Origin: an uncultured Actinomycetes bacterium
GTDB taxonomy: Bacteria > Actinomycetota > Actinomycetes > S36-B12 > UBA10799
DNA: 64,000 bases
Assembly: GCA_946803585.1 (NCBI GenBank)
Contig: CAMPEQ010000005.1
Location: forward strand, 10,517-74,516
Direction: 5' to 3'
In this document: in pieces, positions 1,525 to 29,099 of the stretch
How positions within the stretch are numbered: position 1 is the first letter of the stretch
How the letters are laid out: the number at the start of each line of letters is the position of its first letter
Notes under the pieces: model-generated
What the model saw: the letters and a program-made list of their open reading frames with translations, nothing else
Told to the model about the DNA's origin: nothing
Databases searched by the model: none
Position numbers and translations under genes: made by a program

Positions 1525-2259
1525 CTAGACCGTGACCAGCGGCTCGATGCCTGCGAAGGTGACATCGCCGACGCCAGAAACCTCCTTGAGTTGGGCGACG
1601 CTGCGAAAACCGCCGTACTGAGTGCGGAAATCGATAATCTTCTCTGCAGTGACAGGTCCAACCCGTGGAAGCTCCTGCAGTTCAGTTGCCGTTGCCATGT
1701 TCAAGTTAATCAATCCCGCCGCCGCGCCCGTGGCGCCTAGTCCGGCGGACGGTCCGGCAGCGGTCGTGGCCCCCAAACCCCCTGACTGACCTGCTCGCGC
1801 CGACACGTCAATCTGCTCGCCATCGATGAGAACTCGAGCGAGATTCACGGTCGTTTTACCCTTACTCAGCCCACCTGCCGCAGCCACCGCATCGGCCACT
1901 CGAGACCCAGCAGGCAAGGTGACCACTCCAGGGGTCCTCACCCGCCCAATAACGTCGACTATGACCTCTCCGGCCAGCTCAGGGGTGGAACTGGCCACCC
2001 CGTTCGAGCTCCCAGGCTCAGTCGATGCTTGTCCCGATTCGACCGGTGGCGCTGAGCCCTGCGCTGTCACCGCTGTCACACTGGCCGATTCGCTTGGGGC
2101 CGAGCGCACCATCGCGAAGACCGCAACGACAAGTGCGCCAACGAGTAGCGCGACCAGCCACCGCACTGCTGCACGATCCCACAGCACCACGAGGCGCTCG
2201 TTCAGCGTCCATTCATCGTCGGGTTCCGGGTCTGAGGGCCGGTTGTCAAAATCGCTCAT
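1525..2259 (-). CDS. comEA: ComEA DNA receptor (TM anchor, SLBB-like region, C-terminal helix-hairpin-helix)
   Basis: 244-aa ORF with an N-terminal TM. The C-terminal INLNMATATELQELPRVGPVTAEKIIDFR is an HhH motif typical of ComEA. It lies immediately upstream of comEC. Confidence 0.85.
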   Translation of the reverse strand: MSDFDNRPSDPEPDDEWTLNERLVVLWDRAAVRWLVALLVGALVVAVFAMVRSAPSESASVTAVTAQGSAPPVESGQASTEPGSSNGVASSTPELAGEVIVDVIGRVRTPGVVTLPAGSRVADAVAAAGGLSKGKTTVNLARVLIDGEQIDVSARAGQSGGLGATTAAGPSAGLGATGAAAGLINLNMATATELQELPRVGPVTAEKIIDFRTQYGGFRSVAQLKEVSGVGDVTFAGIEPLVTV

Positions 2260-7320: not shown

Positions 7321-7926
7321 CTACTCGCAGGCAACTCCATCGTTGTCTCGATCCAAATGAGATCCGTAGCCTGGATCACCCCGATGTAGTGGCGTGACAC
7401 CGGCAGCACGCGCGGCCGTACAATTCTTGTAGTAGACGACGGGTGTAGCGCTGCCGCCGCAGTACGCAGCTTCAGCGAAGTTGATTGCTATTGGGCCGTT
7501 CGGCCGCGCCGCAACCATGGAGTCCCAGTCAGCGGCCGTTTGCATACCGTAGGTATTTCCTCCTGCGTCGACCCACGCATTGAAGCTCGTCACCATTTCT
7601 TCTTTGACGCCGTCAGAAAGCTGGAGAGCACCGTCGTCCAGTAGTCCCTTGTACCAAGCCGGAAGGGTCTTTGAGTCCGCTGTGGACTGGGGGTTCGTTA
7701 CCGAGTACGCAGCAACCGCCCTTTCGAACGTGGCGCAGTTCGCTTCCTTCGTTGCTGTCTCCGCGTCTCCACGAAAATTCGCGACGCCAAAAATGACGAC
7801 GGTCGCAAGAATACCGAGGATCACGATCGTGATGAGTAGCTCAATTAGAGTGAAGCCGGAATCAGTGCCTCGGCCTTGCTGGTGACCGTGTAGTCGGTTC
7901 CTCCACAGAGCGAGAGCGGGCTTCAT
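7321..7926 (-). CDS. Type IV prepilin-like protein with a C-terminal Excalibur calcium-binding domain
   Basis: Class III signal: a 24-aa basic leader ending ..TDSG, then FTLIELLITIVILGILATVVIFGV with Glu at mature position 5. The C-terminus YKNCTAARAAGVTPLHRGDPGYGSHLDRDNDGVACE matches the Excalibur DxDxDGxxCE motif. Start taken at ATG 7926 (the track uses TTG 7962). Confidence 0.75.
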   Translation of the reverse strand: MKPALALWRNRLHGHQQGRGTDSGFTLIELLITIVILGILATVVIFGVANFRGDAETATKEANCATFERAVAAYSVTNPQSTADSKTLPAWYKGLLDDGALQLSDGVKEEMVTSFNAWVDAGGNTYGMQTAADWDSMVAARPNGPIAINFAEAAYCGGSATPVVYYKNCTAARAAGVTPLHRGDPGYGSHLDRDNDGVACE

Positions 7927-7949
7927 ACACACAGTGTCGGCAAAATTCG

Positions 7950-8477
7950 TCAGATTCTCCAACCACGCACCGACGACCTAGTCCAAACGAGCAACCCCGT
8001 TCGCCGCGCCGCTAAATCAGCAGCTACCCACATAGCGGCGGCGAGTCCCACTTCCAGCTGAGTCATCAACACCTGGTCGTCCAACCGCCTAGTCTCGAGG
8101 ACGGGTGGTCGGTCGTGTGTGTGGATTGTGCCGCGTGGGCTGGTCCATTGGATGGTCGTCTTCGTGTCATCGAAGTCGTCGGGGCTGTCAGGTTTATCGG
8201 GGTCTGGCTGGATGTCGGGTGGCTTGTTGGGTGTGGTGGTGACGTCGATTTTCCATCGGTTGTGGGCTTTGAGTCTGTGGTGGCGCCGGCATTCGGTAAT
8301 CAGGTTCGCTGCGCTGGTGGTTCCGCCGGTGTCGTCGCCGGTGAAGGGGTTGATGTGGTCGATATCGCAGCGGTAGCCGGGCATTGAACAGCCCGGGAAC
8401 TGGCAGTTGCGGTCCCTGGCGATGATGTACTCGCGGAGGCGGGCTGGTGGGGTGTAGGTGGCACTAGGCCGACTGAG
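7950..8477 (-). pseudogene. HNH endonuclease remnant (C-terminal HNH part of a DUF222-HNH type protein; N-terminal about two thirds missing)
   Basis: The frame is open from just after an in-frame TAG (8478-8480) and reads LSRPSATYTPPARLREYIIARDRNCQFPGCSMPGYRCDIDHINPF...TECRRHHRLKAH. This is a typical actinobacterial HNH core. No DUF222-like N-terminal domain is present, and there is no start codon before the HNH core. Confidence 0.7.
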
Positions 8478-15169: not shown

Positions 15170-15595
15170 ATGGTGACGAGGACAATCGATATTGCAGCAA
15201 GTCCGGAATCGATCATGGATGTGTTAGCGAATCTGCCAGCAGTCGCCTCCTGGGCGGAATCAACCTCCGTCGAGGTACTCCAAGTTCACGCGGATGGTCG
15301 ACCCGCACGCGCTCGGTGGTCGGAAAGCTACGGGCCGATTCCAGACGAGTTCATTCTGGACTACGAGTGGAACGGCGATGAGTCGTTCAGTTGGCGTCTC
15401 GTCGAAGGTCGGGTATTACAACGCGAGGACGGCAAGTACGAGCTGACTGACGTCGGTCAAGGTGTGACCCGCGTGAGGTACTCCCTCGACCTTGGGCTAG
15501 CTATTCCGCTTCCAACACTGGTCACTGACAAGATCGCGTCATCAGTGGTGGCGGCGGGCCTGGTTGCGCTCAAGGACAATGTTGAGGGAGTCTGA
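15170..15595 (+). CDS. SRPBCC (START/polyketide-cyclase-like) small ligand-binding protein
   Basis: 141 aa with the size and pattern of the SRPBCC family. It starts 16 nt downstream of the P450. Confidence 0.55.
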   Translation: MVTRTIDIAASPESIMDVLANLPAVASWAESTSVEVLQVHADGRPARARWSESYGPIPDEFILDYEWNGDESFSWRLVEGRVLQREDGKYELTDVGQGVTRVRYSLDLGLAIPLPTLVTDKIASSVVAAGLVALKDNVEGV

Positions 15596-15662: not shown

Positions 15663-17495
15663 TCAGAACTGTGTCTCCGCCATGCTCTCCAGCAGTTCAA
15701 GCATTCGGCGCTGACGGCCTGCAAGCAGTTCAGCCAGACCGCGCAGCATCGCGCTCGCCAGGTCGGGCTCATCCAACTCGAGTTGGTCCCACCGATGCGT
15801 GCTCAAGAACGCGATCCGAGTGGGCTGGGTAGTTACTGCACTCGCCCGATCGAACCCATCGTTGACCATTGTGAGTTCACCGAACACCGCGCCAGGCCCG
15901 ATCCCACGCAGACGGGTTGAATCAATCAGGCTTTCAACAGGTACCAGCAGGTCAACCTCGCCGGAAAGTAGCCAACTGATCCCGGTGGGTCGATCACCAG
16001 AAGCCACGAGCACTTCCCCCTGCGAGTGGTCGGCAAAACTCAGCAGCCCAGCGACGACCGCGAGTTGCTCGCTGGTTAGCGTTGCGAGGATCTGACACTC
16101 CCCGAGTTCAACGAGGACTCCCGGTGTCGGCATCGCGCCACATTCGGCCAGGATGAGTTCATCCTCAAACCGCTGCAGGACTAGGTCGCGGTCGCGATCC
16201 ATCCGAACCCGCCAGCTCTGTGGTGATCGCCGACCACCAGCGTGCTGAGTCTCGACGACGGCGACCTCTACACCCGACTCGACGAGGGCCACGAGCGCCT
16301 CATTCACAATTTTCAATGCGCCCGGATGGAACTCGGCGACTTGTCGAACATCCAATACGAGCCATCCTGCCGACTCGGATGTGCTCGTGTCAGCAATACC
16401 CTCGACGACCTCTTGTGCCCCGAGCAGACTGATTGACCCCTGTAACTCGACGATCCGCAGCTGGTTGCCGTGAGTACTCAGGATCTCTTGCTCGCGTGGG
16501 GTGCGGCCGGTCCGTGCCCGCACCACCTGGCTCGACGTCACCCGACGAATCGGTGATTGTGATGCCCCGGTCGGGAAGTACACGTGCAAATCGAGATCGT
16601 CAGACAGCAACTCCATCGCTTTCACACCGCGCACTGAGTTGCCGTGGCGGTCTAACGGCGGACTCCAGGCTGCGATTCCCAACTGATTAGGCAGGACTGC
16701 CATGATCGCGCCGGAAACGCCGCTCTTGGCTGGCAGTCCCACGCGGTACATCCATTCGCCTGCACCGTCGTACATTCCGCAAGTCGACATGATCGTGAGG
16801 ACCGGAGAGATCAACTCAGGGGGCACGACCTGCTCATTGCTCAGCGGGTTTCGCCCACCAGATGCCAACGTTGCAGCCATGACCGACAGGTCCACAGCGT
16901 TGATAAGTACCGAGCACTGCGCGATGTAACAACTCAGCGCATCCTCAACGTCGATCTCTAGCGACCCAGCGCCCTTCATCAGGTAAGAGATCGCCCGGTT
17001 GCGATCGCTCGTGTCGCGCTCTGATCTCGCGACATTCTCGTCGATCGAGAGCTCGCGGCCCGCAAAGCGCGAGAGACCGTCACGTATCCGTTCAGCCCGC
17101 GCACGATGATCCTTGCCCTCAACGAGGGTTGACGTGACGATCGCACCGGCATTGACCATCGGATTGAGCGGTTTACCCGAAGCAGCCGAGAGAGTGACCG
17201 CATTGAAAGGGTCCCCGGTGGGTTCAATCCCCACGTGATCTAGGACGTAGTCTTCGCCCCTATCCACCAGGGCCATCGCATAGACGAACGGTTTTGACAC
17301 GGACTGGATCGAGAACTCCAATCCCGAGTTCCCGGCGCAGTACGCCTTCCCGTCGACGGTTGTAGTCGCCAGTCCAAACCAGTCCGGGTTGGCTGCGCTC
17401 AACTGGGGGATGTAGCTGGCAAGTTCGCCCGAGCCTTGCCCCGCGAGTTGCTCATGGAGTTGATGCAGACGGCTCTCGATCGGGGTGCGACTCAT
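15663..17495 (-). CDS. glsA: Glutaminase with C-terminal STAS-like and cyclic-nucleotide-binding domains
   Basis: The N-terminal ~310 aa form a serine-dependent glutaminase (SVSKPF nucleophile motif). A STAS-like segment follows (LRIVELQGSISLLGAQEVVEGI...WLVLDVRQVAEFHPGAL). A cNMP-binding segment comes last (GPGAVFGELTMVNDGFDRASAVTTQPTRIAFL). Confidence 0.88.
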   Translation of the reverse strand: MSRTPIESRLHQLHEQLAGQGSGELASYIPQLSAANPDWFGLATTTVDGKAYCAGNSGLEFSIQSVSKPFVYAMALVDRGEDYVLDHVGIEPTGDPFNAVTLSAASGKPLNPMVNAGAIVTSTLVEGKDHRARAERIRDGLSRFAGRELSIDENVARSERDTSDRNRAISYLMKGAGSLEIDVEDALSCYIAQCSVLINAVDLSVMAATLASGGRNPLSNEQVVPPELISPVLTIMSTCGMYDGAGEWMYRVGLPAKSGVSGAIMAVLPNQLGIAAWSPPLDRHGNSVRGVKAMELLSDDLDLHVYFPTGASQSPIRRVTSSQVVRARTGRTPREQEILSTHGNQLRIVELQGSISLLGAQEVVEGIADTSTSESAGWLVLDVRQVAEFHPGALKIVNEALVALVESGVEVAVVETQHAGGRRSPQSWRVRMDRDRDLVLQRFEDELILAECGAMPTPGVLVELGECQILATLTSEQLAVVAGLLSFADHSQGEVLVASGDRPTGISWLLSGEVDLLVPVESLIDSTRLRGIGPGAVFGELTMVNDGFDRASAVTTQPTRIAFLSTHRWDQLELDEPDLASAMLRGLAELLAGRQRRMLELLESMAETQF

Positions 17496-18893: not shown

Positions 18894-19478
18894 CTACGGT
18901 TTGCACTGGCCCGATTCCAGCAACTGAGATGCCGGAATCGGTTCAAACCGTAGTACCGCGTGATCGGAAAGATCCATCGTGGCACCGAAGATTCCGGTCA
19001 CGAACGAATGTTGGGCACGCACCAGCACGCCGATACTCGTCATCGCTTCGTCCCCTGGGCACGCATTGACGTCCTCATGACTCCACGCCCCGCTGGTTTG
19101 GACCAGTGATGATCCCGAAGGGGTAAAGACGATGCACCTCGTTGTGCACGAGGTGAAGGTCTCGGTTGTCGAGGTGATCGAGGCCCCGTTAGTCGGATAG
19201 CCCGACTCGTTGGACTCAAAGACCCACACTTCCGTGACGTCACTCAAGGGCATCGTCGTGCCCGCACGTGCGACAGCTGCGGCGCCATCAATCGCGAAGG
19301 TCGACAGCCGCGGCTCGGCCGAGGCGACGCGAGCACCAGATCGAGCAGCGGAGGTTAAGGCGACGTGGTCGCGCAACACCATCGCAAACTCGATAACCCC
19401 GAACAGAATCAAGATGAGCAGCGGAAAGACGATCGCGGCCTCCACGGCAACAGAGCCGCGATCGCAGCGACGTCTCAT
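18894..19478 (-). CDS. TadE-like pseudopilin / Flp pilus assembly protein
   Basis: The N-terminus MRRRCDRGSVAVEAAIVFPLLILILFGVIEFAMVLRD is the TadE-like hydrophobic segment. Divergent from flp. The longest ORF extends to TTG 19517. Confidence 0.7.
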   Translation of the reverse strand: MRRRCDRGSVAVEAAIVFPLLILILFGVIEFAMVLRDHVALTSAARSGARVASAEPRLSTFAIDGAAAVARAGTTMPLSDVTEVWVFESNESGYPTNGASITSTTETFTSCTTRCIVFTPSGSSLVQTSGAWSHEDVNACPGDEAMTSIGVLVRAQHSFVTGIFGATMDLSDHAVLRFEPIPASQLLESGQCKP

Positions 19479-19696
19479 CAGCTTCTGCCCGAACACAGTT
19501 GATCCATCGACACTCAATTAGGCAGGGTTTAGCCCAATTCTTTGAACACAGGAATGAAAATTACTTTGTCACCCGATTGGGCGACCCGAGTACAGATTTA
19601 GCAATCAACCATCCGAAGTATGGAACGTAACCGCCGGACACTCCCAGCGAGTAGCTCGGTGACACAACAGAATTACTCGCCGATCGGAGAAGGAAA

Positions 19697-19879
19697 ATGC
19701 TAACTCGAATTCGCACCATCCTGTACACGGGCAAGAAGGACACCGGAGCGAGCGCCGTCGAATACGGTCTCCTCGTCGCTGGTATCGCTCTCGTTGTGAT
19801 CGCCGCGGTCTTCTTCCTCGGTGGCGCCGTCTCAGACAGCTTCAATGAAGTCGGAAGCGCCGTCAGCAGCGCTGGCTAA
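19697..19879 (+). CDS. flp: Flp family type IVb pilin
   Basis: 60 aa with the leader ...KKDTG followed by ASAVEYGLLVAGIALVVIAAVFFLGG (Flp motif with conserved EY). GGAGAAGGA SD upstream of the ATG. Confidence 0.85.
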   Translation: MLTRIRTILYTGKKDTGASAVEYGLLVAGIALVVIAAVFFLGGAVSDSFNEVGSAVSSAG

Positions 19880-20015: not shown

Positions 20016-20657
20016 ATGGCCCGCAAGCTGCTCTTGATCTTCGCGTCACTGACGTTAGTGATCGCGGGCGGCGCCCTGTACCTCGCACTCTCAAAGTCCC
20101 CCGCAACCGCCTCCGGAGCAACTCGCTCCGTCCTGGTGATCACCGGTGACCTTCCACCCGGGACTCCAGGTGCGAACCTGACGGAGGCTCAGGTTCAGCC
20201 AGTCGATGTCTCCGCAAACCTTGTCCCCGCCGACGCGGTAACGAATGTTGGCCAAATCGCGACCCTAAAGTCGATCGGCCCCCTGTTCCGCGGCCAAATT
20301 CTGATGGGCCGAATGTTTGCTCCCACTTCTGCAACGGGCGGCCTGCCCATTCCCCAAGGAACGAATGCGATCACGCTTCAGATCACCGATTCCGGTCGAG
20401 TAGCTGGCTTTGTCCAACCAGGTTCAAACGTTGTCATCTACGAGCGGGCTCAGGGAACTGGGAACCCCGGCGTCGTCGTTCTTCAATCAGCCCAAGTCAT
20501 CGCAATTGGACCGACCACCTCAGGCGGGCAGCCAACTGGCGGTGCAGTTCCCAACGCGAATGCAGCAGTCACCCTTGTGACCTTCGCTCTAAGCCCCAAA
20601 GACTCAGTCAAGGTGGTGGGCCGCGAAGACCTCTACCTCGGGCTACTCCCGTCATAA
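20016..20657 (+). CDS. cpaB: Flp pilus assembly protein CpaB/RcpC
   Basis: 213 aa with an N-terminal TM followed by a SAF/RcpC-like pattern. Its position after flp fits. Confidence 0.8.
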   Translation: MARKLLLIFASLTLVIAGGALYLALSKSPATASGATRSVLVITGDLPPGTPGANLTEAQVQPVDVSANLVPADAVTNVGQIATLKSIGPLFRGQILMGRMFAPTSATGGLPIPQGTNAITLQITDSGRVAGFVQPGSNVVIYERAQGTGNPGVVVLQSAQVIAIGPTTSGGQPTGGAVPNANAAVTLVTFALSPKDSVKVVGREDLYLGLLPS

Positions 20658-20687: not shown

Positions 20688-21893
20688 ATGGCCGTCATTC
20701 TTGAGTTCGACGAATCTATTGCCCATGCCGTTGGCAGCGCTCTGGGCGGCTCCTCCACCGTGTTAACCGATGCGTCGCAGCTCCCTCCACACGTGGCAGC
20801 CACTGGAGACCCACTCGTAGTGATTGGGCCGAGTGTTGATGCCGCTGTCGCCGCGCGGGTAACCGCCGCCACGATCGAAGCCCAACCGATTGCCGGGATT
20901 ATCTGGCTACGACGTCGAGTTGATACCTCGACGGTGCTGGAGGCGATTCGGGCTGGAGCTAGCGACGTCGTTGGTGAGAGCGACCTGCCCGCCCTGGTGG
21001 CTGCGGCAGATCGAGTTCTCGGACGGGCCAACACTGTGGCCACAGCAACAGGCGATCCCGCTGCCGTTGGCGCTACTCCTCGCGGGACTGTAACCGCGGT
21101 GTTCGCGTCCAAGGGCGGGTGCGGAAAAACCAGTATCGCCACTAACCTCGCGTGCCTACTCAGCAGTGAAGGGCAAAAGCGAGTCGCGATTCTGGACCTC
21201 GACCTCGAGTCCGGCGACGTCCAACTCCTGATGTCGCTACCACGTGGCCGCTCGATTCTTGATGTTGCCGCCCTGGGAAGTGGCGTGGATACCGGCTCAC
21301 TGGCCGCGTGTATGTCCGCGCACTCGTCAGGAACATACGTGCTACCCGCGCCACGACGGCCCGAAGAAGCTGCCGGGATCTCACCGCAGCTCGTGAGTCG
21401 CGCTGTGGAGCTAGCAGCGAGCATGTTCGACCATGTGATCATCGACTGCCCGCCCTATGCCACCGAACATGTGCTGTCGGTTCTCGATATCGCTGACCAC
21501 CTCGCCCTGGTGTGTACACCCGATGCCGCCAGCGTCAAGAACACCGCTATTGCACTGGAGATGTTCGACGAACTGAACTTCAAAGGACACATCTCTTTGA
21601 TGATTAACCATGCCGGTGACAAGGTCGGAATCACCACCTCCGACATCTCCGAGGCGCTCAACTACCCCGTCACCTGTGAGATCCCTACATCCCTAGATCT
21701 ACCGCTGGCCACGAACAGCGGGCGAATCCTCACCCTCACTCACCCACGGCATCCGATCACAACGGCGCTCCGAGACTGGTCCACATTGATCAATCCACCA
21801 CTAGCCGAGGCGGTGACCGCACAAGCCCAGAAGAAGACCGTCCCGGCCCAGCGCAAACACCGGTTCTTCAGTAAACGGGTGGCAACGTCATGA
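20688..21893 (+). CDS. TadZ/CpaE ParA-MinD-type ATPase with an atypical receiver-like N-domain
   Basis: Deviant Walker A ASKGGCGKTSIATNLA after a ~130-aa receiver-like N-terminal domain. Confidence 0.85.
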   Translation: MAVILEFDESIAHAVGSALGGSSTVLTDASQLPPHVAATGDPLVVIGPSVDAAVAARVTAATIEAQPIAGIIWLRRRVDTSTVLEAIRAGASDVVGESDLPALVAAADRVLGRANTVATATGDPAAVGATPRGTVTAVFASKGGCGKTSIATNLACLLSSEGQKRVAILDLDLESGDVQLLMSLPRGRSILDVAALGSGVDTGSLAACMSAHSSGTYVLPAPRRPEEAAGISPQLVSRAVELAASMFDHVIIDCPPYATEHVLSVLDIADHLALVCTPDAASVKNTAIALEMFDELNFKGHISLMINHAGDKVGITTSDISEALNYPVTCEIPTSLDLPLATNSGRILTLTHPRHPITTALRDWSTLINPPLAEAVTAQAQKKTVPAQRKHRFFSKRVATS

Positions 21894-23284
21894 ATCTGGC
21901 TGACCGACTCAAGGAGTCACGAGCCGGACGTACTGCCGCGCCACTCGTACCAGATGCCCGAGCAGGCGGAGACGACGTTTCCGCCCCACCCACGCAGGCC
22001 GATGGCTACGCTGAGGTTCGCAAACAGGCCCGGGCCGCAGTCGTCAAGAACCTCGGAACGCGCATCTCCGATGCCAGCGTCAGCGATGACGATCTGCGGT
22101 CATTGGTCACCGCCGAACTCCAAGAAGCTCTCACTAAGATTGATATACCGCTATCAAACGAGGCACGAGCACGCCTGACCAGCGAGATCGCCCAAGAGGT
22201 CGTTGGCCTCGGTCCGATCGAGCCACTCCTTCGCGACCCCACCGTGACCGAGATTATGACCAGCGGCCCCTACAACGTGTGGGTTGAGCGCAACGGTAAA
22301 ACAGAACGTACCGATGTGAAGTTCGACGACGAGGCCCATATCCGGCGCATCCTGGACCGAATCGTCTCGCGCATCGGTCGACGTATCGACGAGTCCAGCC
22401 CCAAGGTTGATGCGCGCCTACCTGACGGTTCTCGTGTCCACGCGATCATTGCACCGCTAGCCGTTGACGGCACCGCGCTCACGATCCGGAAGTTCTCCGA
22501 AGACAAGTTCACCAGCGATGATCTCGTCTCTTTTGGGACGCTCTCCCCTGCCGCTGCCGAGTTCTTGCAGTGTGCAGTCAGCGCGCGTTTGAGCATCCTG
22601 GTCGCGGGCGGAACCGGTTCAGGAAAGACCACCACGCTCAACATGCTCAGCCAGTTCTTTCCTAGCCAAGAGCGAATAGTGACGATCGAAGACCTAGCCG
22701 AACTCAAACTCGACCACGATCACTGGATTCGATTGGAAGGTCGCCCGCCCAATATTGAGGGCAAGGGCGAAGTCACCCTCAGTGCCCTAGTCAAGGAATC
22801 GCTGCGTATGCGCCCAGATCGGGTGGTTGTCGGTGAGATCCGCGATGGTCACGCAGCCATGGACATGTTGCAGGCAATGAACACCGGCCACGAAGGATCC
22901 ATGGGCACGGTGCACGCGAATAGCCCCCGTGACTGCTTTACCAGAATCGATGGGATGGTCGCGATCGCCGGTATGAAGATCGATCAAACTGCGCTCTATG
23001 CCCAGATTGCCTCAGCGATCGACCTCATCGTCTACCAAACGAGGATGCGCGACGGTACGCGCGCGGTAACCCACGTAGCCGAGGTCACCGGTATGGAAGG
23101 TCCGATTATCAGTATGCAGGATGTCTTCGTTCGACCGACCAATGCCGACAGCGCAAAAGTCCCGCTACAACCGGCGGGGATGATTCCCAACTGCTTCCAA
23201 CGAATAGTCGACAACGGCGTCGCGTTGGAGCGGGGTATGTTCCTCAGCGCCCCCGACTACGACACCCCTGCAAGGTGGAGGTGA
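21890..23284 (+). CDS. TadA/CpaF secretion ATPase
   Basis: Walker A GGTGSGKTTTLN with the VirB11/CpaF family pattern. 4-nt overlap with the upstream gene. Confidence 0.95.
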   Translation: MNLADRLKESRAGRTAAPLVPDARAGGDDVSAPPTQADGYAEVRKQARAAVVKNLGTRISDASVSDDDLRSLVTAELQEALTKIDIPLSNEARARLTSEIAQEVVGLGPIEPLLRDPTVTEIMTSGPYNVWVERNGKTERTDVKFDDEAHIRRILDRIVSRIGRRIDESSPKVDARLPDGSRVHAIIAPLAVDGTALTIRKFSEDKFTSDDLVSFGTLSPAAAEFLQCAVSARLSILVAGGTGSGKTTTLNMLSQFFPSQERIVTIEDLAELKLDHDHWIRLEGRPPNIEGKGEVTLSALVKESLRMRPDRVVVGEIRDGHAAMDMLQAMNTGHEGSMGTVHANSPRDCFTRIDGMVAIAGMKIDQTALYAQIASAIDLIVYQTRMRDGTRAVTHVAEVTGMEGPIISMQDVFVRPTNADSAKVPLQPAGMIPNCFQRIVDNGVALERGMFLSAPDYDTPARWR

Positions 23285-23290
23285 GTCGCC

Positions 23291-24271
23291 ATGTTGGATC
23301 TCCTCTTACCGCTGAGCATTATTGGAATCGTCCTGGCCGGGATCGTCATCGTTGCCGTCCTGGTGATTCCGAATCGCAACACCGAACGTTCTAAGGCGCT
23401 GTCGGGAATCATCGCCGACTACCAACGCGAGCAGCCCGACGTCGTCGATATCGACAACTCCGCCTTAACGGCCCTTCGTGTCCGCAGCACCGAGCGCACC
23501 GCGAAGCTCATTGCGGGCAAATCGTGGACGCAGCGACTAGCGACTGGTCTCAATAGTGCCGGGATGTCTCTGCGTCCCGAAGAGTTCATCCTTGTGACTG
23601 CTGGTGCTGGTGGGTTCGGTGGTCTCATTCTCTACGTGCTGTCCCGTGGGTCTATCCCAGCCGGCGTCTTTGGCCTAGTCATCGGGCTCGCAATCCCGCC
23701 GATGGTGCTTCGGTTTCGCGCGAGTAAACGCCAAGCACGTTTCGTTGCGGAGATGCCTGAAATGCTCACGGCCCTGGCCAGTGGAATGTCGGCAGGGGCA
23801 TCTCTACCGCAAGCGATCGAGGGTGTGGCCGCTGACACCACCGGCCCGATGGCCGACGAGCTCAATCGAACGATCATGGAGACTCGACTCGGGACCTCGG
23901 TTCCTGACGCACTCGAACAATCTGCTCAACGGATGAACTGCCGCGATCTACACCTCGTGGTGATGGCGATGCGACTGCAGAGCATGCACGGTGGAAACCT
24001 CACAGAACTACTCAACACCGTTGCCGCCACCTTGCGAGAACGGGTTCAGATGCAACGGCACGTCAAAGCGCTCTCCGCTGAGGGCCGCCTGTCGTTGATG
24101 GTGCTGATGTCGCTTCCCGTTGTCATGCTTGCCTTCATGGCTGTCGTTCGCCCTGAGTACTTCAACTTCTTCATCACCACTCCCAAAGGAATTGTCATGC
24201 TGATTGGTGGGTCGATCGCCATGCTGCTCGGCTTCCTCTGGGCTCGCACGATCGTCGCGGTGGAGGTCTAG
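23291..24271 (+). CDS. TadB (T2SS-F domain) inner membrane platform protein
   Basis: 326 aa with an N-terminal TM, a cytoplasmic T2SSF-like domain and C-terminal TMs. Confidence 0.85.
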   Translation: MLDLLLPLSIIGIVLAGIVIVAVLVIPNRNTERSKALSGIIADYQREQPDVVDIDNSALTALRVRSTERTAKLIAGKSWTQRLATGLNSAGMSLRPEEFILVTAGAGGFGGLILYVLSRGSIPAGVFGLVIGLAIPPMVLRFRASKRQARFVAEMPEMLTALASGMSAGASLPQAIEGVAADTTGPMADELNRTIMETRLGTSVPDALEQSAQRMNCRDLHLVVMAMRLQSMHGGNLTELLNTVAATLRERVQMQRHVKALSAEGRLSLMVLMSLPVVMLAFMAVVRPEYFNFFITTPKGIVMLIGGSIAMLLGFLWARTIVAVEV

Positions 24272-24273
24272 CC

Positions 24274-25203
24274 ATGTCTTCCACCGGCCTACTCGCGATC
24301 ACCGGGATCTGCCTGGTAGTCGGGATCGTGATCGCCGTCATCGCGTGGCGAATGAAAGACGACAGCGAAGGACGCGAACTCCTCAAACAGATCACCCACG
24401 ACGTCGGTCGAAAGGGTGTGATCGATGAGCGTTCGCCGTTCCGCCAGCGGGTACTTGACCCGATTCTTCACAAGCTCACTCGCCTCGGATGGAAGCTCAC
24501 TCCCGCCGAACGGTTACGAGCACTTGAAGAACGGGTGGAAGCCGCAGGGTATCCAGCGGGCTGGGACCTCAACCGTTTGATCCTCATCAAGGTCCTGAGC
24601 ATGTTTGTGGGTGCGGCGTTCGGACTCCTGGTTGCGTTCACCTTCAACCTGGGCTTCGGGATCGTGCTCATGATTGTCCTAGCAGTCGGAGCCTTCTTCG
24701 TCCCGGACTTCGTGTTGAGTAAGGTCGCGGAACGTCGCACGGATGAGATGCGACGGACCTTGGCTGACACCGTCGACATGTTGAATCTGACGCTCGCCGC
24801 TGGAATCAGTTTCGATTCCGCACTCAAACTGGTGGCGCAGAATACAAACGGGCCACTGTCAGATGAGTTCGGCCGAGTGGTGCAGGAGATCACTATTGGG
24901 AAGTCGCGATCCGAGGCAATGATTGCCCTGGCAGACCGAACAAAGGACGACGATCTACGGCGGTTCGCGACCACATGTGTGCAAGCTGAACGGCGGGGTA
25001 CTCCATTCGGTGAGATCCTGCGAATCCAATCACGAGAACTACGGATCAAACGCCGCCAGATCGCCGAGGAGAAGGCCCAGAAGGTACCCGTAAAGATCCT
25101 ATTCCCCATGATGATCTTTGTCCTACCCGTTCTCATGCTCGTCGTCATGGGACCAGCCGTCATCCAAATTATGGAGGGCGGACTCGGAGGCGGGGGTGGA
25201 TAG
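24274..25203 (+). CDS. TadC (T2SS-F domain) inner membrane platform protein
   Basis: 309 aa, a paralogous T2SSF pattern directly after tadB. Confidence 0.85.
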   Translation: MSSTGLLAITGICLVVGIVIAVIAWRMKDDSEGRELLKQITHDVGRKGVIDERSPFRQRVLDPILHKLTRLGWKLTPAERLRALEERVEAAGYPAGWDLNRLILIKVLSMFVGAAFGLLVAFTFNLGFGIVLMIVLAVGAFFVPDFVLSKVAERRTDEMRRTLADTVDMLNLTLAAGISFDSALKLVAQNTNGPLSDEFGRVVQEITIGKSRSEAMIALADRTKDDDLRRFATTCVQAERRGTPFGEILRIQSRELRIKRRQIAEEKAQKVPVKILFPMMIFVLPVLMLVVMGPAVIQIMEGGLGGGGG

Positions 25204-25205
25204 GA

Positions 25206-28199
25206 ATGCGGACCGCTCACCCGATCATCAGTAGGCTGCTGCGCACCCCTGGATCTGCAGTGGTTGCGCTGACCTACGTCGTGACCCGATCGATTCTCGT
25301 GCTGATTCCGTTCGGGTTCTTCCCCTACCCACGCGGAACACTGGTCGGGGCCGATATTCGGCAGTACTGGGTGTGGGCAGACGTCATCGGCAGTGGACAC
25401 TTTCCGGTGAACGATCCCATGTGGCAATACCCGCCACTAGCGGGCTTCGTATTCTGGATCGGGCAGCAGATCTCAGTGCGGCCACTAGTCGGCTTCGTCG
25501 GACTCGCATTACTTCTTGACGCGATCATCTTCATGGTCCTACTCCGCCGCGGTCTGACAATCCGGGACCGACTACGTACCGCCGACAACTCGAACCCAAA
25601 CACAGGCTTTGCCGGCGCCTGGTTCTACGTCCTAGCAGGCGCTGCGATCGGCCCAGTACTACTCACTCGTTTCGATATCTTTCCGACTTTCTTTGCCGTG
25701 CTCGCCCTCCTCGCGATCGCCAAGCCAGTGCGCAGTGGAGTCCTCTTGGGAATCGGAGCCTTGCTCAAGCTCTGGCCCGGGTTTCTCATCTTGGCGCTTC
25801 CCCGTCGCGGTCTAGCCAAAGGACTATCAGCGATGCTGATAGTCGGCGTTGTGGGCATCTCAGTGGCCATGCTGTACGGCCCCTACTCCATGTCCTTTAT
25901 GTCAGGCCAAGGCGAACGGGGACTGCAGGTCGAGTCAGTTGGAGCGATCGGCTACGTCATTGCCCTGATGGCGGGATTCGATATCGAGACCGTGTTCCGG
26001 TTCGGCTCAATCGAGGTTGATGCCGCCGGCGCCGGACTCGTTGCCACCGCGATCACCTTCGTCGGGTTCGCGATCATTGCAACCGTGGGTTGGCTACGGC
26101 TCACCGGACGCCTAGAGCGAGTGGCTCCGGCTGATGTCGCGCTCGCATTGGTCCTAGTCCTGATCGCGACTAGTCGGGTTTTCTCGCCTCAGTTCATGGT
26201 GTGGGCCGCGGGTATTGCCGCCGTTTGCCTTCTTAATCGACGCACTCTGATGCGACCAATCGCGGGGCTCATCCTCCTGGTCTGCGTGCTTGGGCAGGTG
26301 GTGTACCCGTTGGGCTACAAGTCCCTACTCACCGGCGGGGTGACGATGGGACTCGTCCAAACACTCCGGGTCAGCGCCTTGGTATTGGCTACCGGATGGG
26401 CACTGTGGCGGATCTACCAAGTCTCGCGTCGAGAGCCTCCAATCGTGACTCAACCCAACCCAATCACCGAGCGGTTGCGAATGGTTCAGCTCAGTAAGGA
26501 TCGAGGCGCAGTCCTGGTAACGGCATCAATCGTCATGGTGCCGCTGGTTCTAGGATCAGCTGCGATCGGTGTCGATGCCTCCAACTGGTACTACATGGGC
26601 CACCGCCTTCAGGTCGCTGCTGACGCTGCTGCCCTCGCCGGAGCCGTCTATATGCCTGGCGACTTCTCAGAGGCGACTGCTTCTGCCCGCGATATGTCGG
26701 CGAAGAACGGGTTCACCCATGATCCTAGTAACTCCAATGTGAACAAGCGGGTCACCGTAACGCCGGCCTCCTCAGCTAAGGCCTCGGAACTGCGCGTAAC
26801 AATCACCGCCACCAAATCGAACTGGTTCGGTTGGGCGATCGGCGGCCTCGACCAAACGATGACGCGCACTGCCGTAGCCGAGTACCGCGGTCCGGTGCTG
26901 ATGGGTAGCCCCTGCAATCTGTTTGGCGATGAGCCCCCTGGCGGGACCGCCGAGTGGGAGAGCGCGTCGACCGATGAAGGCTGTAACCGGACTCCGGAAT
27001 TCTGGGCGAATGTGGCGGGACCCGGATCAGCCAAGAGTTACGGCGACAGGTACGCAACAAGACGCTGCGATAACAGCAACTCTGGCTGTACCAGCAGGGA
27101 CAACGACGACTACAGCCCAACCGGGCACTTCTACAAGATCAGTGTCAAGGACGCCGTGACATCGTTCGACGTCGAGATCTTCGATCCACTCCTGGTGGAT
27201 GTAGGTGACTATTGCGAAACCAACAACCTCAGTAGTAGCTGGTCGTGGGACCAACCAAATCCGTATTCAACGGTCTCTGGTGACGCTGCTGAACGCTACG
27301 TTGGAGGTGCCGACTCCGCTTACTGCACCGGAGACAAAATGTTCTCCGGCTCAGCAAGTACATCGGTGACTACGTTCGCAGTACGAGAACCAATCCAAAG
27401 TGGAAACCCCTTGAACGCACCCGTCAAGAAAACGTGTACCAAGCAGTTCCGCGGATACAGCAGTAGCGGAATCAAGGACAAACTCCGGACGAGTAAGAGC
27501 GCCTACGACTCAGACCTAGCCGCAAGCTTCCGACAATGGTCATCACTTTGCACCATCAATAACCCCACCATCGGTGATTACTACTTACAGGTGCGCACGA
27601 ACCTGCCCTCGGGGACATCAGACTCCACCGCTTTGTCTTCGGCAACGGAATTCCCGACGGTGAACTGGAGTGGACATAACCGCTACTCGATGCGGGCAAA
27701 GGTGGTCGGCGACGCGAGCAATGTCACCGTCGCCGGGTACGGCTCGATGGTTATCTACACCAATAGCCCTGCGGCCGACACCAACTTCTACCTCGCTCGA
27801 GTCAATCCTGCCTCAGCTGGGATGAGCTTGGACGTGAATCTCTTCGATGCTGGGGACGCGTCTCAGGCTGGCGTCATCACCATTGAACCGCCACCGGATG
27901 CCACGAGCGGGGGGGCACCGCTCACTCTCTCGACCTGCCAGGCGATCGGTGACGTACGTGGCTCGGAGAGTAGCCCGTCCACTATTAGCAACTGCGCTAT
28001 GACCAACGTGTCCTCGAGCTCGGGTTTCAACGGGCAGTCCCAGGTGATTCGGGTATCGATCCCAGTTGACTACGACTGCGACGAAGGCGATCCCTACGGC
28101 TGTTGGTTCAAGATTGACTTCGACTATCCGGCAGCGGCGAACGACACCACGTCGTGGGCTACGGATCTCGTAGGCCAACCCGTCCGCCTCGTTGAATAG
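25206..28199 (+). CDS. Fusion protein: N-terminal polytopic GT-C (GT87/DUF2029-like) glycosyltransferase domain plus C-terminal TadG-like pilus-associated domain
   Basis: A single uninterrupted 997-codon frame. Residues 1-~415 have ~12-13 TM helices, and the first loop reads GADIRQYWVWADVIGSGHFPVNDPMWQYPPLAGFVFW (the D..Y...G..PY....YPP pattern of DUF2029/GT87). From the internal ATG at 26481 the sequence reads MVQLSKDRGAVLVTASIVMVPLVLGSAAIGVDASNWYYMGHRLQVAADAAALAGA (a TadE/G-like N-terminus). A ~540-aa Cys-rich extracellular region typical of actinobacterial TadG-related proteins follows. Confidence 0.75.
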   Translation: MRTAHPIISRLLRTPGSAVVALTYVVTRSILVLIPFGFFPYPRGTLVGADIRQYWVWADVIGSGHFPVNDPMWQYPPLAGFVFWIGQQISVRPLVGFVGLALLLDAIIFMVLLRRGLTIRDRLRTADNSNPNTGFAGAWFYVLAGAAIGPVLLTRFDIFPTFFAVLALLAIAKPVRSGVLLGIGALLKLWPGFLILALPRRGLAKGLSAMLIVGVVGISVAMLYGPYSMSFMSGQGERGLQVESVGAIGYVIALMAGFDIETVFRFGSIEVDAAGAGLVATAITFVGFAIIATVGWLRLTGRLERVAPADVALALVLVLIATSRVFSPQFMVWAAGIAAVCLLNRRTLMRPIAGLILLVCVLGQVVYPLGYKSLLTGGVTMGLVQTLRVSALVLATGWALWRIYQVSRREPPIVTQPNPITERLRMVQLSKDRGAVLVTASIVMVPLVLGSAAIGVDASNWYYMGHRLQVAADAAALAGAVYMPGDFSEATASARDMSAKNGFTHDPSNSNVNKRVTVTPASSAKASELRVTITATKSNWFGWAIGGLDQTMTRTAVAEYRGPVLMGSPCNLFGDEPPGGTAEWESASTDEGCNRTPEFWANVAGPGSAKSYGDRYATRRCDNSNSGCTSRDNDDYSPTGHFYKISVKDAVTSFDVEIFDPLLVDVGDYCETNNLSSSWSWDQPNPYSTVSGDAAERYVGGADSAYCTGDKMFSGSASTSVTTFAVREPIQSGNPLNAPVKKTCTKQFRGYSSSGIKDKLRTSKSAYDSDLAASFRQWSSLCTINNPTIGDYYLQVRTNLPSGTSDSTALSSATEFPTVNWSGHNRYSMRAKVVGDASNVTVAGYGSMVIYTNSPAADTNFYLARVNPASAGMSLDVNLFDAGDASQAGVITIEPPPDATSGGAPLTLSTCQAIGDVRGSESSPSTISNCAMTNVSSSSGFNGQSQVIRVSIPVDYDCDEGDPYGCWFKIDFDYPAAANDTTSWATDLVGQPVRLVE

Positions 28200-28334: not shown

Positions 28335-29099
28335 ATGACCCACCAGAAACTAGATGTGCTGGCCGACAAAGGCTTCGTCGTTCTCGACTCCTATGGCGAC
28401 CTGGTCGATCCACGCGAGTGGCAAGCACTCGAGTATGTCGACTGGAAATCCTCCGGCGACACTCGGTTTGCACCGCTTGCCAGTGCCTATGGCGAGATTG
28501 AGTGCAATGGCTTCTGGCATTTCGATCCGCCGAAGCCGGACAAAGATGGTGTGTGGATCGACAGCCAAACGCAAAAGGCTCCAACCCTGTCCTGGCGGGC
28601 CCAAGAAGCTGGAGCAAACATCGGTCGTTGCCGCGTCATCGAGCTGCAACCGAACTCCTATGCCGATGCGCTCTACAACTCTCACCTGGATGACAACAAC
28701 CGTCTCAATCCCGAGGAAGAGGGCTGGATTGTTCGGTGCTTTATGCAGCTCACCGACAACCCGAACTCCTACATGATCTTGCGGGAGGACGTGAAGGATC
28801 CGTCAACCGAGACTCGGATCGCGCTGCCAGCGGGTGCGCAACTCCTGGTTGATTCCGAGCGCATGTGGCACTCTGTTTGGCATCAAGGTGACGGGCCGCG
28901 CTACTGCCTCATCACATCATTTGAGACCGGTCCAGAGCTTGAGAAATGGGTCGAGGCTAATAACCCGACAACTGAGGTTGTCCAGGTTGAGCTTGCGGTA
29001 GAAGCTGCCGCTGCGGCGGAAGACGAAGCACAGAATCGCCGCGACGCACGTACTGCTTTCTACGGTTACGACCCAACGACTGTGCGTTCCGAGGCGTAG
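28335..29099 (+). CDS. Hypothetical protein, possible cupin/Fe(II)-2OG-oxygenase-like fold (HxD...H)
   Basis: 254 aa, soluble. NSHLDDN (HxD) and MWHSVWHQGDGPRYCLI (distal His, Arg) are spaced ~60 aa apart, as in Asp/Asn-hydroxylase-like cupins. This is motif-level only. The 3' end overlaps convergent cydC by 34 nt. Confidence 0.5.
   Translation: MTHQKLDVLADKGFVVLDSYGDLVDPREWQALEYVDWKSSGDTRFAPLASAYGEIECNGFWHFDPPKPDKDGVWIDSQTQKAPTLSWRAQEAGANIGRCRVIELQPNSYADALYNSHLDDNNRLNPEEEGWIVRCFMQLTDNPNSYMILREDVKDPSTETRIALPAGAQLLVDSERMWHSVWHQGDGPRYCLITSFETGPELEKWVEANNPTTEVVQVELAVEAAAAAEDEAQNRRDARTAFYGYDPTTVRSEA

Follow-up and report, generated by a model that had tools for sequence, protein, structure and literature searches.

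In a 64,000-nucleotide stretch of contig CAMPEQ010000005.1 from an uncultured Actinomycetes bacterium (the whole stretch is hereafter called the window), the operon for a Tad pilus ends in a gene that joins a membrane glycosyltransferase (GT) of family GT87 to a TadG-type minor pilin. It is a genuine, selected translational fusion and a conserved member of the tad operon. That the fusion is real, that it unites an intact GT-C enzyme with a TadG-type pilin and that it belongs to the operon can be stated with high confidence. By analogy, a polyprenyl-phosphate sugar-dependent enzyme appears to occupy the cytoplasmic leader position of a TadG-type prepilin. The model that best accommodates these features, and to which we give even chances, is a polyprotein-like precursor whose enzyme would act on pilus proteins and from which a prepilin peptidase would free the tip pilin.

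The gene (window 25206-28199, forward strand) is one open reading frame (ORF) of 997 codons that runs from an ATG to a TAG without internal stop. Its start lies 2 nt 3' of the tadC stop (TAG-GA-ATG) and is preceded by a purine-rich Shine-Dalgarno sequence, as in other genes of the operon. The encoded protein carries two Pfam families, both above their gathering scores: GT87 (PF09594) and Tad (PF13400). The original prediction, made from the DNA letters, had proposed a single uninterrupted frame of this kind, and the peptides it quoted are present as written. An artefact of assembly or annotation, in which two genes were merged by a frameshift or a lost stop, would give the same picture, and the junction of the window strain is known from its assembly, the reads having yielded one 152-nt contig of the region. 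Against such an artefact, a word-indexed search of 5.8 billion proteins recovered five further two-domain proteins with 57-80% identity from JGI, ENA, NCBI and Logan assemblies, each orthologue encoded by one uninterrupted ORF. One of the five is present in 34 index blocks, and the exact window protein is recorded on 3 contigs. Intact fusions of 1045 codons occur in two species-representative metagenome-assembled genomes (JBLHZE010000043 and CAWGCB010000006, the latter on a 754-kb contig). In every recovered locus tadC lies directly 5' of the fusion gene, and the genes 3' of it vary by lineage. The linker between the halves, measured from the end of the WALWRI motif to six residues before DRGAV, is 19 amino acids long in the window and 32-53 in the measured orthologues; length changes are always in frame, all linker indels being multiples of three. 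A separate GT87 gene that could have merged with tadG is absent from unfused sister loci. Because the same architecture recurs in independent assemblies, an assembly artefact is very unlikely, and this explanation is effectively refuted. On the 754-kb contig (L016 5455-9039), both the tadZ and the tadB equivalent are broken into two ORFs, for which indel errors of long reads are the probable cause, and the 1045-codon fusion ORF is intact.

Codon comparison of the window gene with three orthologues found synonymous sites near saturation (proportion of synonymous differences, pS, 0.63-0.78). Against the two closer orthologues, the ratio of nonsynonymous to synonymous divergence (dN/dS) was about 0.05-0.08 for the GT87 module, about 0.04 for the leader and first helix of the pilin and about 0.05 for the TadG ectodomain. 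It was about 0.4 for the linker and, against the most distant orthologue (L001), 0.17-0.26 for both halves. These values indicate strong purifying selection on both halves.

The GT87-TadG fusion is rare. When 1.84 billion cluster representatives were searched exhaustively with HMMER, 4,235 matched, and only P0002 among them spans both halves; the others are stand-alone TadG-type proteins of about 550-640 amino acids (matching residues ~430-997) or GT87 proteins of about 400-450 amino acids (residues ~20-410). Among 185,579 species genomes scanned with two GT87 peptide patterns, the full fusion was found in 2, which is a lower bound. Several other candidates were set aside. P0046 (825 aa, on a single 7-kb ENA contig) looked like a TadE-TadG fusion; its junction reads out of frame, and it is probably a frameshift or read-through artefact. 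P0027, P0029 and P0045, considered as other N-terminal TadG fusions, are ordinary TadGs with an inserted domain. Long GT87 matches at L024 are tandem paralogues: another uncultured Actinomycetes genome carries three tandem GT87-like genes there (L024 9892-13722; 447, 406 and 474 aa), which therefore explain long multi-segment matches in the genome scan. In the literature searched, no work was found on a connection between DUF2029/GT87 and pili, or between TadG and a glycosyltransferase in the sense of a fusion. The absence of precedent claimed by the original prediction thus holds within that literature: both parts are known kinds of protein, and a description of their union was not found.

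The N-terminal module (residues 1-408, window 25206-26429) matches GT87 PF09594 at residues 73-323 with 35.6 bits against a gathering score of 25 (E 1.1e-8; profile positions 1-232 of 237). An AlphaFold2 model built with 90 family members (pLDDT 94.2, pTM 0.92) returned only GT-C proteins from the Protein Data Bank (PDB) in Foldseek, all with probability 1.00, namely glycosylphosphatidylinositol (GPI) mannosyltransferase I (9wno), PIG-U, PimE (9dm5/9dm7; TM score 0.54-0.60), ArnT and ALG3. The predicted fold of this half is that of a GT87/GT-C glycosyltransferase of the GT-C(A) type, as the original prediction had proposed, with 12 transmembrane (TM) and 4 juxtamembrane (JM) helices, a very short TM6 that an invariant Lys precedes, and an Arg-rich stretch where the chain leaves TM12. 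Neither half, nor the profile of the GT87 family, gave a useful match in sequence and profile searches of the PDB.

In PimE the catalytic base D58 lies on JM1, Y62 supports it and K195 binds the donor phosphate. Position and spacing suggest the same roles for D50, Y54 and K188 of the fusion. The candidate catalytic dyad D50...Y54 (window 25353-25367) lies in the first outer loop on a JM1 helix (residues 44-62) with the same i/i+4 spacing as D58/Y62, and K188 (window 25767-25769), the candidate donor-phosphate ligand, stands just before TM6. Among 90 family members D50 is conserved in at least 90%, which bears out the conserved Asp pointed to earlier in this loop; Y54 is conserved in 100% and K188 is invariant, and all three are identical in all fused modules. 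Beyond the features shared with PimE (the GT87 profile, the GT-C fold, the 12 TM + 4 JM layout with its short TM6, and, by position and spacing, an Asp-x3-Tyr in the first outer loop and a Lys before TM6), the fusion differs from PimE and other GT87 mannosyltransferases in several respects. Identity in structural alignment is 16-17%, with no sequence-level match to any PDB chain; the C-terminus runs into a pilin; and the gene stands in a pilus operon, not with envelope-glycolipid genes.

Whether the module still works as an enzyme bears on a further alternative, namely that it is a non-catalytic scaffold of GT-C fold, as PIG-U is in the GPI transamidase, which binds a lipid-linked glycan or serves as an anchor. 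PIG-U chains are indeed among the best Foldseek matches. However, 89 stand-alone relatives define 50 positions with at least 90% conservation, and each of the five fused modules keeps every one of them, including D50, Y54, D70, R155-F156-D157, K188 and R324; only about five fixed differences are specific to the fused modules, dN/dS is about 0.05, and there is no sign of decay. The module is therefore neither a decayed anchor nor visibly altered in its active site; the enzyme is apparently catalytically intact, and a pure scaffold is very improbable.

The C-terminal half matches Tad PF13400 at residues 434-480 (29.6 bits against a cut-off of 22.3, E 8.5e-7). The fusion protein also gives a weak match to TIGR03816 (Rv3654c TadE-like), whose 23 bits are below the cut-off of 51. 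This half has 565 stand-alone homologues, several of them named TadG or TadG-related in their sources, the closest with 63% identity. Its AlphaFold2 model (pLDDT 92.8) begins with a continuous helix of 58 residues (model residues 3-60), the pilin-type alpha-1 and 13th TM segment of the fusion (residues 435-480, window 26508-26645), followed by strands 96-140 forming a small beta-sheet and then by beta-sandwich and other beta-rich domains (ectodomain, residues 481-997, window 26646-28196). As modelled, the half is a pilin-like module with a large extra domain. It contains 12 Cys, 10 of which are conserved in at least 94% of 50 relatives, which fits an extracytoplasmic ectodomain; the earlier assignment of a TadG-type protein with a Cys-rich ectodomain is thereby borne out. 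Foldseek comparison of this half with the PDB and BFVD gave nothing significant, only low-probability beta-sandwich noise.

In recent papers TadG, CpaL and KilN are treated as large minor pilins which, once the leader is removed, build the tip or priming complex together with TadE and TadF, and TadG has been detected in pilus preparations. The fusion shares with these proteins the Tad N-terminal motif, a leader ending in Gly, a long hydrophobic alpha-1 in which the customary acidic or aromatic register residue is missing, a large C-terminal module placed after a small pilin beta-sheet, and a tad locus with a TadE-like minor pilin; flp, tadZABC and the TadE-like gene are all found together with the fusion. 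It differs in its ectodomain, since CpaL and proteobacterial TadG have a von Willebrand factor A (vWA) domain, which was not found in the fusion by Pfam or in its TadG half by Foldseek; the fusion has instead a Cys-rich beta-sandwich assembly with no relative in the PDB or BFVD. It differs above all in its leader, which has a median of 17 amino acids in TadG relatives (n=108), whereas the fusion has an enzyme-bearing 'leader' of 434.

In these 108 stand-alone relatives the leader is Arg-rich, ranges from 0 to 52 amino acids and ends in [D/E]-x-Gly; all 100 ungapped sequences among them have the Gly. In the fusion this ancestral leader (RLRMxRLSxDRG) survives where the linker ends, under constraint as strong as that on the domains. 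In the window protein, a variable linker (residues 409-425, window 26430-26480) is followed by the retained leader MVQLSKDRG (residues 426-434, window 26481-26507), which ends in G434; the predicted prepilin-peptidase site is G434/A435 (nucleotides 26507/26508). The motif D-x-G↓(A/S)V.V, in which the arrow marks the predicted cut, is common to three proteins of the same locus: Flp (DTG↓ASAVEY), TadE (DRG↓SVAVEA) and the fusion (DRG↓AVLVT). The Gly and basic leader are internal in the fusion, with 425 residues ahead of them, and do not form a short leader at the protein start. Because both termini of PimE are cytoplasmic in its 12 TM + 4 JM layout (PMC12041525), homology would place the linker in the cytoplasm, in agreement with the location that the original prediction gave to this basic segment. 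Since the leader has been kept although 12 upstream TM helices already fix topology, it appears to be still functional, and leader and invariant Gly suggest continued recognition by a prepilin peptidase at the cytoplasmic face. As recent work regards TadG-type proteins as tip minor pilins whose leader is removed, the fusion predicts a proteolytic separation: if the TadG half is a tip pilin, a cut is needed, because a 12-TM anchor would prevent a tip role. We infer that a prepilin peptidase cleaves after G434 and so frees the tip pilin.

Independent translation of the TadG half, raised earlier as initiation at ATG 26481, is unlikely as a rule. No Shine-Dalgarno sequence precedes this ATG, at whose aligned position the most widespread lineage has ATA and another lineage GTG, so internal initiation was rejected as a conserved feature.

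Alternatively the fusion may be permanent and uncleaved, the TadG-type half acting as a static inner-membrane assembly factor with the GT87 module beside it, possibly as an extra anchor. The TadG of Aggregatibacter actinomycetemcomitans was reportedly first described as a membrane protein, and its processing by TadV is said not to have been shown. Position +5 of the helix after the Gly is never Glu in TadG relatives, and it is at this position that the TadG half shows its one substitution found to correlate with fusion: T439 (window 26520-26522) is Thr in all five fused proteins and Met or Val in the 14 nearest unfused TadGs, including those that branch among the fused ones, which could reflect packing of the helix against the enzyme. 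A missing Glu at +5 is, however, typical of the first, tip-most pilin, as in GspK-like proteins, and a recent paper argued for CpaL that loss of the usual register residue fits such a subunit. An uncleaved protein also sits poorly with the strong constraint on an invariant Gly and Arg-rich leader where 12 TM helices fix topology, with the pilin-type 58-residue alpha-1 helix and beta-sheet of the AlphaFold2 model, and with the current placement of TadG, CpaL and KilN at the pilus tip. We consider a permanent fusion distinctly unlikely. Among five TadG columns examined as fusion-correlated Ser/Thr sites, four are also Ser/Thr in the unfused P0008 and were dismissed as phylogenetic, which leaves T439.

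The history of the module bears on the same question. A survey of homologous Tad loci found the fusion directly after tadC in at least five lineages, which are 57-82% identical, and unfused sister loci without a GT87 gene. Three of the latter (L006, L007 and L008) share the window's synteny, with a 254-aa ORF, two ABC transporter genes and cytochrome bd, and no GT87 gene was found within 10 kb of them. In distance trees of limited sampling (neighbour-joining, Kimura-corrected distances, 300 bootstraps), the GT87 modules of all fusions group together in a single clade when 89 stand-alone relatives are included (90% support; 100% for the core four); the TadG halves of the fusions do not (0% support for monophyly). 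For the TadG half of the L001-type fusion, the nearest proteins are the unfused P0008 and P0007; at the P0008 locus (L095), the flanking genes are those of L001, TadG is unfused and a GT87 gene is absent. The simplest reading of these trees and loci is a single recruitment of a GT87 paralogue ahead of tadG, followed by loss or recombinational exchange. Since sister loci work with an unfused TadG, this pattern of gain and loss implies an unchanged task for the TadG half whether the module is present or not, and a tip pilin permanently tied to a 12-TM protein is therefore hard to reconcile with it. The retained leader with its invariant Gly, the recent view of TadG-type proteins as leader-processed tip pilins, the gain-and-loss pattern and the near-identity of the enzyme to its housekeeping paralogues had been overlooked by the original prediction.

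Those paralogues point to the possible origin of the enzyme. The nearest stand-alone GT87 relatives are 50-56% identical, and one is named as a GT87 protein of Candidatus Nanopelagicales. Their genes follow those of a HisKA_3 kinase, a LuxR-type regulator and a multi-TM protein of about 488 amino acids and precede a convergent GT4 gene, with trpD, ctaE and qcrCAB nearby. This context presumably resembles the mycobacterial Rv2181-Rv2196 region, with pimB' and mptC. PimB is Rv2188c (PMC12041525). The arrangement suggests a role of the stand-alone enzymes in synthesis of an envelope mannolipid or lipoglycan. The ~488-aa protein (L009 6538-8004, L011 6550-8004, L012 6391-7872), translationally coupled to the GT87 enzyme through a stop that overlaps the GT87 start, has a DVD motif right after its first TM helix and fits no family of Pfam or NCBIfam; it is a candidate for a second GT-C-type enzyme, hitherto undescribed, within a module of histidine kinase, response regulator, X, GT87 and GT4. 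At L011 639-8004, a second Tad-like set (T2SSE, two T2SSF and a kinase/regulator pair) and an 83-aa Flp gene lie directly before the stand-alone GT87 pair, which hints at a wider link of this GT87 subfamily with Flp pili.

In the precursor model, a 13-TM protein would insert with the GT87 active site (D50/Y54/K188) and the TadG ectodomain outside and with the linker and old leader in the cytoplasm. The GT87 module would then transfer mannose from polyprenyl-phosphate-mannose to a mannose-bearing acceptor, as its stand-alone paralogues and PimE would do. The most plausible targets are an O-mannosylated TadG ectodomain in cis, about 20% of which is Ser and Thr, and/or Flp, pilus proteins being likely substrates because the enzyme is made together with the pilus machinery. 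Cleavage by the prepilin peptidase after G434 would free the mature tip pilin, leaving the enzyme in the membrane, and the pilin would prime Flp polymerisation together with TadE. In this scheme the sugar, the acceptor and the cleavage are the conjectural parts, and glycosylation of Flp or TadG by the fusion enzyme, already suggested by the original prediction, is a proposal by analogy. The more specific version, in which a whole 12-TM glycosyltransferase serves as prepilin leader and the peptidase releases both the enzyme and a tip pilin glycosylated in cis, is tentative and, in our estimate, somewhat less probable than its opposite.

The acceptor is where a competing explanation has most to say. 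The fusion may serve co-expression or localisation only, with the GT87 enzyme acting on an envelope glycolipid or lipoglycan of the phosphatidylinositol mannoside (PIM) or lipomannan type and with cleavage optional; the envelope would perhaps be remodelled at the pilus exit site. The gene neighbourhood of the stand-alone relatives speaks for it, as these adjoin a GT4 gene and a second multi-TM protein near trpD-ctaE-qcrCAB. So do the small number of fixed differences from the paralogues, with the active site unchanged, and the absence from Flp and TadG of any Ser/Thr signal correlated with fusion. According to a recent review, nevertheless, PimE, itself a GT87 enzyme, lengthens the O-mannose chains of secreted mannoproteins as well, and GT87 members do the same in other actinobacteria (PMC12757957). 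As the family is thus reported to act on O-mannose as well as on PIMs, and to serve glycoproteins without a separate active site, an unchanged site fits either kind of acceptor and favours neither. A purely lipoglycan role also leaves unexplained why a tip pilin should stay joined in frame at dN/dS of about 0.05 across saturated synonymous divergence. We regard this explanation as a serious rival, yet as fairly unlikely, and more so than a precursor acting on the pilus.

Several observations nevertheless weigh against the precursor model. Flp tails are rich in Ser, Thr and Ala in both fused and unfused loci, and the Ser/Thr content of TadG does not differ between them. The Ser-rich Flp C-terminus, offered earlier as a hint of glycosylation, is equally present in sister loci without the GT87 module; it was discarded as evidence for a specific acceptor, having no discriminating power. 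The module is nearly unchanged from paralogues in an envelope-glycolipid-type gene context, from which a lipoglycan could equally be the acceptor. The match of D50 to D58 rests on position and spacing, the profile searches not having reached PimE. No prepilin peptidase gene was found within the 64-kb window, and we know of no direct demonstration that TadG-type proteins without Glu at +5 are cleaved. Tomich et al. are said to have shown, in 2006, only TadE and TadF to be TadV substrates. The organisms, moreover, are uncultured, and the model is known here from sequences and predicted structures.

Glycosylation enzymes encoded beside pilin genes are familiar from type IVa systems: TfpW is described as a GT-C-type arabinosyltransferase, and TfpO/PilO and PglL are Wzy_C-type oligosaccharyltransferases. 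By description, the fusion enzyme has in common with them that it is a membrane enzyme with a lipid-linked sugar donor and a genetic link to pilus genes. In contrast to these separate proteins, encoded beside a major pilin gene for the type IVa pili of Gram-negative bacteria, it is covalently joined to a minor (tip) pilin in the Tad system of an actinobacterium. It is not an oligosaccharyltransferase of the PglL/PilO type, since a Wzy_C domain was not found in the fusion protein, in which Pfam recognized GT87 and Tad only. TfpW is set apart, again by description, by a different family and pilus class, although the fusion may by analogy work like it. Modular type IV pilins are also known from Streptococcus sanguinis, whose PilB carries a vWA and PilC a lectin module. 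Their extra module sits at the C-terminus and moves along with the pilin, which the N-terminal, membrane-integral module of the fusion cannot do.

If the peptidase does release both the enzyme and a tip pilin glycosylated in cis, the type IV filament superfamily would gain its first enzyme-bearing leader, and Tad pili their first dedicated glycosylation module. The fusion is a pointer to glycosylated Tad pili in Gram-positive actinobacteria; no dedicated enzyme for such a modification was found in the literature searched. It also offers a natural test of whether TadG-type tip proteins are processed as pilins, in which processing would show as the conversion of a protein of about 107 kDa into products of about 46 and 60 kDa, and sister loci with and without the module are ready-made natural controls. 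Its topology suggests that the cytoplasmic leader position can hold a whole protein with an even number of TM helices without conflict, a capacity relevant to the understanding, and perhaps the engineering, of prepilin peptidase substrates.

The locus around the fusion is a compact actinobacterial tad locus with a TadE-like gene divergent from the operon, followed by flp, rcpC/cpaB, tadZ, tadA, tadB, tadC and the fusion; flp and the fusion gene are 5.3 kb apart. The TadE-like minor pilin (18894-19517, reverse strand; Pfam TadE PF07811, E 7.9e-15) has the N-terminus ...CDRG↓SVAVEAAIVF and a weak NCBIfam match to TadE_Rv3655c, and its gene holds the same position in all related loci. The other genes are on the forward strand. 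The flp gene (19697-19879) encodes a major pilin of 60 amino acids with the motif ...KKDTG↓ASAVEYGLL... and the C-terminus VGSAVSSAG, just as it had been quoted, and its orthologues in related loci match Flp_Fap PF04964. It is followed by rcpC/cpaB (20016-20657; Pfam RcpC PF16976, E 2.4e-9), tadZ/cpaE, encoding a ParA-like ATPase (20688-21893; Pfam ParA, AAA_31 and CbiA), and tadA/cpaF, encoding the secretion ATPase (21890-23284; Pfam T2SSE, E 1e-64). The genes for the platform proteins are tadB (23291-24271; Pfam T2SSF, E 4.8e-18) and tadC (24274-25203; T2SSF, E 4.9e-24), and a scan for promoters and terminators was uninformative.

Downstream of the fusion, a 254-aa ORF (28335-29099, forward strand) is a possible operon member. 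It directly follows the TadG-type gene in fused and unfused loci alike (the window, L013/L014, L006, L007 and L008), not at L003 or L001. Its only Pfam match is sub-threshold, to an Asp/Arg beta-hydroxylase (cupin-like), and it has no relative in the PDB; its product might modify the Cys/Asn/Asp-rich ectodomain.

Elsewhere in the window, a 213-aa protein (7321-7962, reverse strand) combines a prepilin N-methylation motif (N_methyl) with a C-terminal Excalibur calcium-binding domain, and a ComEA-like protein (SLBB + HHH_3) is encoded a few kb away (1525-2259, reverse strand); both may be components of a competence pilus. A 1084-aa self-sufficient cytochrome P450 (11900-15154, forward strand) unites P450, flavodoxin, FAD and NAD domains in a BM3-like manner, and a small polyketide-cyclase/SRPBCC protein is encoded right after it (15170-15595). 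Finally, a 610-aa glutaminase (15663-17495, reverse strand) carries a cyclic-nucleotide-binding domain fused at its C-terminus.

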